A stretch of 40,443 nt of DNA from the IMG/VR virus record IMGVR_UViG_2778261635_000003. The stretch is one strand, 5' to 3'. Every line of letters begins with the position of its first letter. Position 1 is the first letter of the stretch. Shown here piece after piece: positions 31,154 through 33,790 of this stretch. Origin of the DNA: a virus (taxonomy: Duplodnaviria; Heunggongvirae; Uroviricota; Caudoviricetes). The translations under genes and the position numbers were made by a program. The notes below the pieces were generated by a model. It ran no database searches. It saw nothing but the letters and a program-made list of their open reading frames with translations, and had not been told where the DNA came from.

Positions 31154-31606
31154 ATGGAATTCGAAATCAAAGGCGTGAAATATCGCGTGGCAAAACTCAG
31201 CGTTTTTGACCAGCTGAAAGTGACCCGCAAACTTCTGCCGGTACTGGCGGGAATGATGTCAGATTTCGGGAGCATTCGCTCCCGTTTGCCTGCTGACGGC
31301 AAAATCGACACCGTGAAATTCGAGCAGTTAAAACCGGTGTTTGAAACCATGCTCCCGCGTATCGCTGAGGAACTGTCTTCCCTGACCGAAGATGACACCG
31401 ATGCGATTATTCATCCCTGTCTTGCGGTGGTGTCGCGGCGTCATATGGACGGATGGGTGCCGGTATTTACCCGGGGCGAACTGATGTTTGATGATATTGA
31501 CCTGCTGGTCATGCTTCATCTGGTGGCGCGGGTGGTCGCCGATTCGCTGGGAAATTTTTTGCCTACACCCCTTACCAGCACGACGCAGAGCCTGCAACAG
31601 GGCTGA
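31154..31606 (+). CDS. Tail assembly chaperone (short form); -1 frameshift extension predicted to 31794
   Basis: 150 aa directly upstream of the tape measure; slippery T_TTT_TTG at 31555-31561; the -1 frame is open for 60 further codons. Confidence 0.55.
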   Translation: MEFEIKGVKYRVAKLSVFDQLKVTRKLLPVLAGMMSDFGSIRSRLPADGKIDTVKFEQLKPVFETMLPRIAEELSSLTEDDTDAIIHPCLAVVSRRHMDGWVPVFTRGELMFDDIDLLVMLHLVARVVADSLGNFLPTPLTSTTQSLQQG

Positions 31607-31783
31607 CGTTTAACAGCCTGCCGGACGGGCTGTCCTACCTTCTCAATCCGGTTGACGCCGGGTTAATTCCTTATACAGCACTTAAAGATGGCTCTGTCGA
31701 TTTGTACGACATTGCTCTTTTGAATGACCATCTGGCGGTAAAAGCGGATAACCAGCGGCGCATTGAGAAATGGAGAGAGGATA

Positions 31784-33790
31784 ATGAACGCTGAAACTAT
31801 TAAAGATTTCCTCGTCTCGCTTGGCTTCAGTGTGGATGATGCAGGAGCGAAAAAGTTCGGTTCTGTCCTCGCCGGTACAACTGCAAATGTCATCAAAATG
31901 GGGCTGGCTGTTGAAGGAGCTGCGCTGTCCGTGGTGGTCTTCACGGCTAAGATCGCCTCTGGTCTGGATAATCTTTACTGGGCGTCACAGCGCACCGGCG
32001 CGACAGTCCAGGGAATTCAGTCTATTGGCTATGCGGTTTCGCAGGTTGGCGGCAGTGTGGACGCTGCGCGATCTTCTCTGGAAAGCCTCTCCCGGTTTAT
32101 TCGTAACAATCCCGGAGCAGAAGGCTTTCTGAATCGCCTGGGCGTACAGACCCGTGATGCCAGCGGTAACATGCGTGACATGGCTGCTATCTTTACGGGC
32201 GTTGGACAGAAACTCAGCAGCATGCCGTATTACCGGGCTAACCAGTATGCGCAGATGCTGGGCATTGACGAAAATACCCTGATGGCTATGCGTCGCGGAG
32301 TGGGGCAGTTCAGCGCTCAGTATTCAGAAATGGTGAAAGCGATCGGATTTAATGCCGATCAGGCTGCCTTATCGTCAAACCGGTTTATGACCTCGCTGAA
32401 ATCGCTCGGTGAAATGGCCGGGATGGCGCGGGACAAAATCGGATCGAATCTTGCGGACGGACTGGCGGGGCAGATTGATAACCTGCGCAAAAAGATAATT
32501 GAAAATTTTCCCAAAATTGAAGTCACCATCACAAAGGTCATAAAGGGGATCCTCTGGCTGGGTGAGATAGTCGGGCGGGTTGCATTTCGGATAGTCGATG
32601 GTGTCGGAGATATCATCGAGTGGTGGGGGAAACTGGATGCCGAAACGAAAACCCTGATAGAGGTTATCGGCGGTCTGGTTGTCGCCATGCGGATACTTAA
32701 CTCTACTTTCTGGATGTCACCTATAGGGCTGATTACTGGTCTGATCGTGGCTCTCGGTCTCTTGTGGGAAGACTACAAAACATGGAAAGAAGGCGGTAAC
32801 AGCCTTATCGACTGGGAAAAATGGCAACCGGCAATAGATAAAGCGAAGGATGCGATCACCTGGCTTCGTGATCACCTTCTGGAACTAAAAGATGGTGTTG
32901 GCGGCTGGCAAAATGCACTGGAAATCCTCGGTACATTCATCGCGGGTGTCTGGGTATCCAGGGTTCTGGGGGCTTTCGGAAAAATATCAGGTTTACCGAT
33001 CCCACCCTGGCTTAAATTGTGGGCGCTTTACGCGGGCTATATTGTTAGTGACAGAGAAAATATTGCCGATAGCGCAAAATCTTCACTGAGGTATACGAAG
33101 CGAATTATCGGCGACACGCTGGCTGCTATTGGTATAAAAACAGATATCGGACGCAGGGATGTCAGTGAGGTCCGTGAATGGCCTGCGTGGATGGACTGGT
33201 TGCACGGGGGACCCGGTAAAGTTATCCGGCAGGGACAGAGTAACGGTGTAGTGCATGGCTCCAACGTCCAGCCCGACATCCCCGGCGGCGGCACTCTTGC
33301 TGATCGCAACAATAACCCCGGGAACATTCGCCCGGTGAGCGGTAAAGGGTTCCGGTTTTTCGAATCAGCGCTTGAGGGCTGGGAGGCGATGAAAAACCAG
33401 CTCATGCGTTACTTTACCGGGAAAACAACCGGACGGGCATTACAGACTATTCAGGATATTGTCAGTACCTGGGCCCCGGCAGGTGATAACAACGATCCGA
33501 AAAAGTATGCACAGGATGTTGCGAAATGGATGGGAGTATCACCGAATGCAATATTGAATCTTACAGATCCCCGGACTATGGGAGCATTGATGCAGTCGAT
33601 GGCGCGCAAAGAAGGTTATTCAAACTGGAACAGCCCGCTGGCGTATCAGGCCGCCGCTGGCAGCCTTAACCAGCAGACTGTTATAAATGTTCATGGAGTT
33701 AACAACCCTCAGGAGGCGGCTAATCTGATTGCTGACAAGCAGGGGGCTGTAAATGCCAGGGCGGTACAGCAATTGAAAGGGCCTGCGTGA
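31784..33790 (+). CDS. Tail tape measure protein
   Basis: 668 aa from an ATG with a GGAGAGAGG RBS; long Ala/Gly-rich helical protein with hydrophobic segments. Confidence 0.75.
   Translation: MNAETIKDFLVSLGFSVDDAGAKKFGSVLAGTTANVIKMGLAVEGAALSVVVFTAKIASGLDNLYWASQRTGATVQGIQSIGYAVSQVGGSVDAARSSLESLSRFIRNNPGAEGFLNRLGVQTRDASGNMRDMAAIFTGVGQKLSSMPYYRANQYAQMLGIDENTLMAMRRGVGQFSAQYSEMVKAIGFNADQAALSSNRFMTSLKSLGEMAGMARDKIGSNLADGLAGQIDNLRKKIIENFPKIEVTITKVIKGILWLGEIVGRVAFRIVDGVGDIIEWWGKLDAETKTLIEVIGGLVVAMRILNSTFWMSPIGLITGLIVALGLLWEDYKTWKEGGNSLIDWEKWQPAIDKAKDAITWLRDHLLELKDGVGGWQNALEILGTFIAGVWVSRVLGAFGKISGLPIPPWLKLWALYAGYIVSDRENIADSAKSSLRYTKRIIGDTLAAIGIKTDIGRRDVSEVREWPAWMDWLHGGPGKVIRQGQSNGVVHGSNVQPDIPGGGTLADRNNNPGNIRPVSGKGFRFFESALEGWEAMKNQLMRYFTGKTTGRALQTIQDIVSTWAPAGDNNDPKKYAQDVAKWMGVSPNAILNLTDPRTMGALMQSMARKEGYSNWNSPLAYQAAAGSLNQQTVINVHGVNNPQEAANLIADKQGAVNARAVQQLKGPA

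Follow-up and report, generated by a model that had tools for sequence, protein, structure and literature searches.

A tail assembly chaperone gene with a probable programmed −1 ribosomal frameshift in a SEN34/Brunovirus-like prophage

The production of a short and a long tail assembly chaperone from one gene by ribosome slippage is common to most long-tailed phages. The lambda pair gpG/gpGT has reportedly been studied by Levin, Hendrix and Casjens in 1993 and by Xu, Hendrix and Duda in 2004, 2013 and 2014. In lambda, gpG is the abundant short form and gpGT the rare long form, and neither is found in virions (PMC5009743). The E/E+E′ frameshift of phage P2, as relayed in a later article (Christie et al. 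2002, cited in PMC3091744), uses the site T_TTT_TTG and is described there without a downstream hairpin. A comparable argument has appeared for the TAC-N/TAC-NC chaperones of myoviruses of the Pakpunavirus/Vandenendeviridae group, in which an ORF between chaperone and tape measure is routinely labelled 'hypothetical' and is really the C-terminal part of the long form, and the chaperone gene carries an invariant poly-T motif, GTTTTT, near its 3′ end (PMC12846349).

The locus compared with these systems here lies in a window of 40,443 nucleotides, which is the whole stretch of DNA analysed (IMG/VR record IMGVR_UViG_2778261635_000003). Its source is a temperate myophage of SEN34/Brunovirus-like type, present as a prophage in an enterobacterial (E. 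coli-type) genome, and the presence of a sheath gene identifies a contractile-tail phage (Table 1). The order tail tube, chaperone, tape measure is that of the G/GT-type arrangement (Xu et al. 2004). RefSeq names a near-identical chaperone gene 'phage tail assembly chaperone' and starts the tape measure gene at the identical ATG. The zero frame of the chaperone closes with TGA at 31604-31606, in agreement with the end given in the initial annotation. The −1 frame has no stop from 31501 up to a TGA at 31792-31794; this stop had also been predicted, and the open stretch past the zero-frame stop, given before as 60 codons, is actually 62 codons long. The same prediction let the frame run up to the tape measure start, which holds with the correction that the ATG lies at 31784, so that the two ORFs share 11 nt. 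Between 31501 and 31794 the −1 frame contains no ATG or GTG; the only TTGs, at 31702 and 31720, both fall inside the conserved domain. This second ORF overlaps the 3′ end of the chaperone gene in the −1 frame, lacks a usable start codon and stops where the tape measure gene begins, as expected of the second ORF of a G/GT-type gene, for which neither a start nor a ribosome binding site is foreseen.

Table 1. Features of the chaperone locus and its neighbours (window coordinates)
Feature	Coordinates	Strand	Evidence
Tail sheath gene	29554..30699	+	Pfam DUF3383 E=4e-101; phrog_205 tail sheath E=3e-135
Tail tube gene, directly 5′ of the chaperone gene	30710..31150	+	Pfam PF11681 KPP10_Orf10 E=8.8e-61
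Short tail assembly chaperone, zero-frame, 'G'-like, 150 aa	31154..31606	+	ORF; Pfam PF21822 Phage_TAC_15 E=2.1e-30 (106.3 bits vs gathering cut-off 22); phrog_1688 tail assembly chaperone E=1e-64
Slippery run GGGAAATTTTTTG, 13 nt	31549..31561	+	Read from sequence; three overlapping in-register heptamers
T_TTT_TTG, most likely shift site	31555..31561	+	T6 invariance in relatives; P2 E/E+E′ precedent
−1-frame extension, 77 codons + TGA	31561..31794	+	Open frame; selection in −1 frame; homologues
DUF6889 domain (PF21829), presumed 'T'-like functional domain	31669..31785	+	Pfam E=9e-20 over residues 173-211 of the fused product; phrog_4364 E=1.4e-22
Tape measure protein gene	31784..33790	+	phrog_2276 tail length tape measure protein E=8.5e-248

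The overlap of the two frames contains the 13-mer run, which occurs once in the whole window and comprises three in-register slippery heptamers of the form X_XXY_YYZ: G_GGA_AAT (31549-55), A_AAT_TTT (31552-58) and T_TTT_TTG. Only the last had been noted before, with the correct position and register, and the two that overlap it had been missed. Its distance from the zero-frame stop had been stated as 15 codons; 14 sense codons lie between, and the stop itself is the 15th. The zero-frame codons of this heptamer are TTT (31556-58, Phe) for the P site and TTG (31559-61, Leu) for the A site, and G_GGA_AAT is close to the G_GGA_AAG of lambda. A point against the T-rich site is that re-pairing of tRNA-Leu(UUG) onto UUU in the A site is imperfect. 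A synonymous mutant version of the slip region reads TTCTTCCTG. The heptamer TTTTTTG is found 22 times on both strands of the window (15.1 ± 3.4 expected), and a stop-free frame of 77 codons arises in 512 of 20,000 mononucleotide shuffles of 31561-31791 (2.6%). Shuffles were used after an empirical null, the openness of the −1 frame past the stops of other genes in the window, had been tried; the latter is uninformative because the genome is compact and the next gene often lies in the −1 frame. The heptamer by itself is no rarer in the window than expected, and the evidence from the window alone is weak; it is the relatives that settle the question.

The comparison set consisted of 47 genome loci and three phages with chaperones 34-85% identical, which yielded 48 distinct intact copies. 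The in-frame T6 run is invariant in all 48 (39 TTTTTTG, eight TTTTTTT and one TTTTTTC), so that the heptamer originally named contains the element that never varies, and it is also kept in 80 of 80 close IMG/VR relatives. Entropy at the synonymous positions of T6 is zero, whereas third positions upstream average 1.0 bit, and Phe codons elsewhere in the compared genes are nearly evenly divided (TTT 126 : TTC 113). The zero-frame residues G-N-F-L are conserved as well, and a constraint on the protein could cause part of the nucleotide conservation; the invariance of the synonymous positions indicates that this is not the full explanation. GGGAAA precedes T6 in 38 of the 48 copies, 35 of which keep the full 13-mer. 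The −1 ORF reaches 53-68 codons past the chaperone stop (62 in most), with a deletion fusion (L034) and a premature stop (L040) as exceptions, and the extension is homologous in 44 relatives. Stop codons in the −1 frame of related phages had been proposed as grounds for rejecting the frameshift; this test does not refute it, since the copies with such stops (L040, L068 and, through its deletion, L034) are all decayed.

The pattern of codon differences also changes along the gene. Upstream of the heptamer, the share of synonymous differences is 59% when codons are read in the zero frame but 7% when they are read in the −1 frame. Over the next 14 codons, up to the zero-frame stop, the order is reversed, with 14% for the zero frame against 54% for the −1 frame; in the extension the values are 47% in the −1 frame, 9% in the zero frame and 7% in the +1 frame. 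The frame under purifying selection thus changes, from zero to −1, precisely at the heptamer, and the comparative signal across the relatives is far beyond chance. Conservation of both ORFs together with purifying selection in the shifted frame is what a G/GT-type gene exhibits, and every expectation of the proposed G/GT-type −1 frameshift that could be tested at the sequence level was borne out. In addition, seven distant cluster representatives (P0169, P0211, P0251, P0263, P0270, P0271 and P0278) have the chaperone and DUF6889 in one frame, and the three whose DNA was read show no T run at the junction. A single in-frame gene for both halves is seen in GC-rich distant relatives (L133 and L134, with no T run), and in L135 the fused gene is preceded by a separate short chaperone gene.

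A downstream stimulatory structure, for which the initial annotation had recommended a search, was not found by any of three approaches. A single-sequence fold of 31549-31680 gave no stability beyond that of shuffles (z = −0.6), RNAalifold over 20 diverse relatives returned zero consensus pairs, and Rfam had no match. The locus does not therefore belong to the structure-stimulated class represented by dnaX, IS elements and RNA viruses, in which a stable and conserved hairpin or pseudoknot lies 5-9 nt downstream; as in P2, it appears to have no downstream stimulatory structure.

The resemblance to P2 extends to a contractile-tail enterobacterial phage with the identical heptamer, annotated as a frameshift site in P2, in the identical register, to the short distance of the site from the zero-frame stop (six codons in P2, 14 here) and to the small overlap of the extension with the tape measure gene (8 nt and 11 nt). 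The two systems differ in the size of the products (91/142 aa and 150/213 aa) and in the two extra slippery heptamers that precede the T6 heptamer here. Moreover, the P2 extension is PF06528 (Phage_P2_GpE) and the present one is PF21829 (DUF6889), and the proteins are unrelated in sequence: BLASTP of P2 E′ against the extension gave no alignment, and in Pfam at E<=10 the extension matches only DUF6889 and P2 E′ only PF06528. Membership of the PF06528 family was rejected accordingly; the mechanism is common to both phages, the family is not. Lambda shares the position of the gene between major tail protein and tape measure and a −1 shift near the 3′ end. It is a siphovirus that shifts at G_GGA_AAG, whereas the conserved site here is T6, although a lambda-like G_GGA_AAN heptamer is present too, and the Pfam scan detected no similarity to gpG or gpT.

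A true homologue is found in Klebsiella phage Mulock (CPT_Mulock_014/015, GenBank MN098327), whose chaperone is 57% identical, with 71% identity of the region at the DNA level, and which has the same 13-mer and a 62-codon extension. It belongs to another phage species with another host. The Mulock homologue is already annotated 'tape measure chaperone frameshift product', with a joined length that fits a −1 shift; this putative annotation is not taken up in the genome paper. The Pakpunavirus phages, which are lytic Pseudomonas phages, are likened to this one by the kind of argument. No frameshift is mentioned in the genome papers of SEN34 and Mulock or annotated in the GenBank records of SEN34 and YP3 or in RefSeq, and a search of the literature on the SEN34/Brunovirus-like group found no protein or ribosome-profiling report of one.

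Several other explanations of the −1 ORF could be considered. A functionless coincidence of heptamer and open frame would agree with the frequency of TTTTTTG in the window and with the 2.6% of shuffles that are equally open, but it is already refuted by the comparative data, since the protein, the open frame and T6 are conserved across Enterobacterales and beyond and synonymous changes follow the −1 frame; its probability is practically nil. RefSeq instead treats 31630-31794 as a gene of its own, for a 54-aa 'DUF6889 family protein' with an improbable CTG start, which would be an independent small gene unconnected to the chaperone. Two unrelated genes are annotated in this way in 23 of the 24 inspected records covering the region among the listed E. 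coli genomes, Pfam and PHROGs keep DUF6889 as a separate family, and Klebsiella/Photorhabdus-type clades have an internal ATG (the M of 'LMRPV'), occasionally with an upstream Shine-Dalgarno-like sequence. Against such a gene, the annotated starts vary among four places and are mostly CTG rewritten as Met, the −1 ORF of the window offers only TTGs within the domain, and the conserved LPDG motif has no canonical start at or before it in 36 of 46 loci, one locus having no start at all. Selection in the −1 frame sets in at the heptamer, which lies within the chaperone ORF and about 23 codons before the start given by RefSeq, and natural in-frame fusions to the chaperone exist. No conserved initiation codon with a ribosome binding site was found upstream of the domain, and a free-standing gene is extremely unlikely.

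The relatives also bear on how the two frames would be joined. If RNA polymerase added a U on T6, some mRNAs would be in frame and the ribosome would not need to slip. The site is indeed a homopolymer, lengthened to T7 in eight of the 48 relatives, and the public assembly L131 (Logan SRR23924998) is a T7 version that encodes a fused 213-aa protein, although this variant may be a homopolymer sequencing error. The resulting product, ...GNFFAYT..., would be the one expected from slippage at either of the first two heptamers. Documented transcriptional slippage in bacteria requires runs of about 8-9 or more A/T, of which six T fall short. In 40 of the 48 relatives the run keeps a length of exactly six T and its codon register; a site selected for slippage of the polymerase should tend to be longer and would have no need of the register, and this counts against it. 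The identical site of P2 is, moreover, described as translational, and transcriptional slippage appears very unlikely here. The ribosome could also slip at G_GGA_AAT or A_AAT_TTT and not at T_TTT_TTG. Both heptamers are in register, GGGAAA is kept in 38 of the 48 relatives with its synonymous positions included, and the similar G_GGA_AAG, the shift site of lambda G/GT, counts in favour. However, T6 suffices, since the ten relatives that have lost GGGAAA retain both it and the extension. In E. coli, moreover, A-site AAU (Asn) shifts less readily than AAG, and P2 uses T_TTT_TTG. A slip at the upstream heptamers is accordingly regarded as unlikely.

Collectively, the observations favour a chaperone gene that is translated with a programmed −1 ribosomal frameshift, a reading to which a probability of roughly 0.88 is assigned on the basis of sequence comparison. 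We infer the slippage itself, its efficiency, the heptamer used and the binding roles of both forms as follows. Most ribosomes would read the zero frame to its end and release the 150-aa chaperone, and a minority would slip back by one base on the U-rich run, most likely at U_UUU_UUG, where the P-site tRNA-Phe and the A-site tRNA-Leu could both re-pair on UUU; no downstream RNA structure appears to be involved. The slipped ribosomes would read 77 more codons and stop just inside the tape measure gene, giving a form of 213 aa, join(31154..31561, 31561..31794), that would have its first 136 residues in common with the short form and carry the DUF6889 domain at its C-terminus. If the roles correspond to those in lambda gpG/gpGT and P2 E/E+E′, both forms may coat the tape measure protein through their common N-terminal part, and the rare C-terminal domain may recruit the tube protein, in which case the efficiency of slippage would set the ratio of short to long form.

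The long product is distinguishable by its junction. A slip at T_TTT_TTG would give ...GNFLAYT..., and a slip at either of the other heptamers ...GNFFAYT...; the predicted junction peptide is GNFLAYTPYQHDAEPATGLTFNSLPDGLSYLLNPVDAGLIPYTALK (or its GNFF variant), within the longer span ...VVADSLGNF[L/F]AYTPYQHDAEPATGLTFNSLPDGLSYLLNPVDAGLIPYTALK. A structure prediction for the fused protein (P0001, alignment of 56 rows) had a mean pLDDT of 46 and a pTM of 0.29, with only the C-terminal helices at about residues 160-213 near pLDDT 70, and the model was too poor for a fold search. A search of solved structures by sequence of the fused chaperone yielded nothing relevant.

The frameshift mechanism is a textbook one of a well-known kind, and the practical value lies in the correction of annotation. 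The evidence says that the 'DUF6889 family protein' (PF21829, phrog_4364) would be the frameshift-encoded C-terminal domain of the long Phage_TAC_15 chaperone. The region is present in 315 of 5426 complete E. coli genomes. The DUF6889 protein was formerly mislabelled 'NTP pyrophosphohydrolase', and a literature search found no paper mentioning DUF6889. The outcome comprises the precise join of the long product and a peptide by which it could be confirmed, and the domain would, by analogy with lambda gpT, recruit the tube protein. A further, joint reading is doubtful and offered tentatively: the three slip sites of the 13-mer might make slippage unusually efficient or tunable and yield two long forms, with Leu or Phe at residue 136, and the TAC_15/DUF6889 family would have switched strategy, which may comprise a frameshift in the enterobacterial clade, in-frame fusion (L133 and L134) and a fused gene with a separate short gene (L135). 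The natural in-frame fusions of distant relatives offer material for studying the importance of the ratio of short to long form, and, if the switching of strategy is true, the TAC_15/DUF6889 family would provide a natural system in which to ask why recoding sets that ratio.

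The chaperone ORF encodes 150 amino acids and ends with a TGA codon at 31604-31606, where the initial annotation had placed its end, and the slippery T_TTT_TTG that this annotation had pointed out is present at 31555-31561 in the X_XXY_YYZ register of the ORF (...CTG GGA AAT TTT TTG CCT..., translated as L G N F L P). Two other in-register heptamers, G_GGA_AAT (31549-55) and A_AAT_TTT (31552-58), absent from the initial annotation, overlap TTTTTTG, so that the slippery run can be regarded as the 13-mer GGGAAATTTTTTG. The -1 frame is free of stop codons from 31501 to a TGA at 31792-31794, and its end falls 11 nt inside the next gene, which starts with the ATG at 31784. 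The position of this stop and the placement of the heptamer upstream of the zero-frame stop agree with the initial annotation, whereas its two distances need correction: 14 sense codons, not 15, separate the heptamer from the zero-frame stop, and 62 codons, not 60, then follow in the -1 frame. No ATG or GTG was found in the -1 frame of the window, in which the sole TTG codons, at 31702 and 31720, would give products of 30 and 24 aa. Considered alone, the heptamer and the open -1 frame are weak evidence: the window contains 22 copies of TTTTTTG (15 would be expected), and shuffling of 31561-31791 leaves one frame without stops in 2.6% of cases.

The gene lies between tube and tape measure genes, and the tape measure gene is followed by genes for a Dit-like protein and the baseplate. 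A translation that continues from the chaperone into the -1 frame gains a part (the extension, 31561-31794) with matches to two families of unknown function, Pfam DUF6889 (E=9e-20) and phrog_4364 (E=1.4e-22). The window represents a temperate phage: besides a contractile tail, it encodes RecE/RecT and a lambda-type integrase as well as a repressor and a replication module. The named phages closest to it are four of E. coli (98.6% identity), Yersinia phage YP3, Salmonella phage SEN34 (genus Brunovirus), and Klebsiella phage Mulock; of 5426 complete E. coli genomes, 315 carry the chaperone region. The genome is mosaic, with a lambda-like early region at 735-12914 (Int with an arm-binding domain, RecE/RecT, HTH repressor, DnaC-like loader) and a contractile-tail module at 20542-40333, whose sheath, tube, and hub families are named for Pseudomonas phages E217, KPP10, and PhiTE; this fits SEN34 as published, a myovirus with a lambda-like genome. 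RefSeq gives the entire tape measure protein the name 'lytic transglycosylase', and endolysin and transglycosylase PHROGs match its C-terminal third (approximately residues 488-667); a cell-wall-degrading domain appears to be built into this tape measure. In addition, the ~770 bases at 35784-36554, which separate a baseplate hub-like gene (34749-35783) from the next baseplate gene (36555-37307), have a GC content of 0.37-0.42, compared to ~0.50 in the flanks, and hold only small ORFs, one of which (35780-35953) encodes a lipoprotein-like signal peptide, MKKVFFCLFLALPLTVSAATQCG...; insertion of a moron into the tail module may account for this stretch.

Coordinates of the tail genes in the window and of in-frame fused relatives on other contigs
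Feature	Coordinates	Family match
Tail sheath	29554-30699	Pfam DUF3383, phrog_205
Tube protein	30710-31150	Pfam KPP10_Orf10
Tail assembly chaperone	31154-31606	Pfam Phage_TAC_15 (E=2e-30); phrog_1688 (E=1e-64)
Tape measure protein	31784-33790	phrog_2276 (E=8.5e-248)
In-frame fused relative	L133:1501-2133	
In-frame fused relative	L134:1038-1664	
In-frame fused relative	L135:108-1238	

Conservation was examined in 47 loci from one-genome-per-species bacterial assemblies (chaperones 34-85% identical; mostly Enterobacterales, with one Rhizobiales metagenome bin), in 80 close IMG/VR relatives, and in three annotated phages; L011 and L045, with broken chaperone genes, were left out. The 48 distinct sequences all have an in-register run of six T (39 TTTTTTG, 8 TTTTTTT, and 1 TTTTTTC), as do all 80 close relatives. 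Phenylalanine codons elsewhere in the same chaperone genes are TTT in 126 cases and TTC in 113, and the GGGAAA 5' of the run is retained in only 38 of the 48 distinct sequences. In the relatives, the -1 frame is open for 53-68 codons past the chaperone stop (62 in most) and encodes a homologous peptide with the conserved motifs ...LPDG..(Y/F)L..PV.AG....LK.G.VDL.DIA.MND.L..KADN..RI.KWR..NER. The prediction that related phages would be free of -1-frame stops here thus held with three exceptions that look like decayed copies: L040, an Arsenophonus bin, has a -1-frame stop after 9 codons, in L034 (region 1812-2633) a deletion has joined the extension's first half to a baseplate-region gene further 3', and L068 has an indel at the extension. 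The E. coli protein P0139, with Pam3_gp18 and DUF6889, is a deletion fusion like that of L034.

The frame under selection was determined from the synonymous fraction among codon differences in 33 loci aligning without gaps. In the 60 nt 5' of the heptamer, this fraction is 59% in the zero frame, 7% in the -1 frame, and 13% in the +1 frame; in the 14 codons that follow the heptamer and still belong to the chaperone ORF, the values are 14%, 54%, and 14%, and past the zero-frame stop they are 9%, 47%, and 7%, respectively. Entropy per site is 0 from one base 5' of the heptamer to its sixth base, whereas the zero-frame third positions just 5' of the heptamer have a mean entropy of 1.0 bit. It could be deduced from these profiles that the short form's final 14 codons are unconserved as protein while their -1 reading is conserved, and the point where purifying selection switches frame locates the shift to the slippery run.

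Further evidence comes from fusions that occur naturally. With the fused sequence as query, a full HMMER search gave seven cluster representatives of 191-210 aa, each with one alignment spanning the junction. Three of these fusions were read at the DNA level on GC-rich contigs (61-65% GC), and their junctions read TTC TTC TCC, TAC TTC TCG, or CGC TTT TTC ACC; no slippery run is found there, and they are genuine in-frame genes. They provide independent evidence that the chaperone domain and DUF6889 act as one polypeptide. On L135, a separate 170-aa Phage_TAC_15 gene lies directly 5' of the fused 202-aa gene, which looks like a two-gene route to a short and a long form, and the arrangements on the three contigs look like alternative, non-recoding routes to both forms. 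The fused gene of L133 is directly 3' of a 674-aa gene with no Pfam match on record, possibly a tape measure gene, and that of L134 is directly 5' of a Dit-like gene, with no tape-measure gene between.

These data bear on two other explanations for the extension. Transcriptional slippage on the T6 run, which would also make the long form, is improbable, given how short this run is and that its codon register does not vary. In the Logan contig L131 (SRR23924998; 97% identical), the segment homologous to 31549-31561 (L131:1895-1912) reads GGGAAATTTTTTTG, with seven T instead of six, so that chaperone and extension are in one frame, encoding the 213-aa protein P0001, whose cluster has 16 member sequences. 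This may represent a genuine allele making only the long form or an error in sequencing the homopolymer, or, if RNA was sequenced in that run, a trace of slippage. Still less probable is an independent small gene, against which stand the frame switch at the heptamer, the in-frame chaperone-DUF6889 fusions, and the failure to find a conserved start codon across loci: 36 of 46 have no ATG, GTG, or TTG up to and including the LPDG motif, and one has none anywhere in the extension. RefSeq gives 31630-31794 (corresponding to L132:1131-1295) as a separate 54-aa 'DUF6889 family protein' with a CTG start, and stand-alone DUF6889 entries have four different starts (MTLNSLPDG..., MPDGLSY..., MSYLL..., and MRPVDAG...). 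Many keep the older label 'NTP pyrophosphohydrolase', for which no support was found. The stretch is unannotated in the SEN34 and YP3 records; only Mulock (MN098327) has a joined CDS, 'tape measure chaperone frameshift product', whose 617 nt fit a -1 shift, 617+1 being divisible by 3. Collectively, the invariant T6 run, the frame switch, the lack of a conserved start, and the fusions support the G/GT-type programmed -1 frameshift in the chaperone gene that the initial annotation proposed, with tandem -1 slippage on U_UUU_UUG as the best-supported account.

The G/GT frameshift is well established as conserved in long-tailed phages, and P2-type sites slip 2-3 fold more efficiently than that of lambda (PMC5009743). 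In mechanism, P2, which shifts at TTTTTTG (PMC3091744), is the best match: the -1 site is annotated in its record (...GGT CGG T_TTT_TTG TCG...), the in-register heptamer is identical and lies 6 codons before the E stop, and E+E' ends 8 nt inside gene T. However, E' belongs to PF06528 whereas the extension belongs to PF21829, and BLASTP of the P2 and window chaperone proteins gave no alignment, their relatedness not being detectable. The residues just before the slip site look alike (...AGKVVGFL in P2 E, L136:170-206; ...ARVVADSLGNFL in the window, 31520-31606), which could be due to convergence on the slip site or to very distant common ancestry. A downstream stimulatory structure, suggested as a check, was looked for and not found: the fold of RNA 31549-31680 is no more stable than shuffles (z = -0.6), RNAalifold predicted zero conserved pairs in 20 diverse relatives, and Rfam gave no match. 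This agrees with P2, which has no hairpin 3' of its site either (PMC3091744). The same argument was made in 2025 for Pakpunavirus chaperones, in which a 'hypothetical' ORF is the C-terminal part of the long form and a poly-T motif is invariant (PMC12846349).

In the proposed mechanism, the ribosome would slip -1 in tandem on U_UUU_UUG at low frequency, giving a 213-aa long form in addition to the short one of 150 aa. If the analogy with lambda and P2 holds, the tape measure protein would be bound by both forms and the tube protein recruited by the DUF6889 domain. We infer the occurrence of slippage, its efficiency, the heptamer used among the three, and, from the same analogy, the binding partners of the two forms. 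This kind of system is already very well known, with a homologue so annotated in Mulock and an identical slip site characterised in P2. As by-products, the analysis offers a functional reading for DUF6889 and phrog_4364, corrects a recurrent RefSeq annotation, and indicates that distant relatives have replaced recoding with in-frame fusion.
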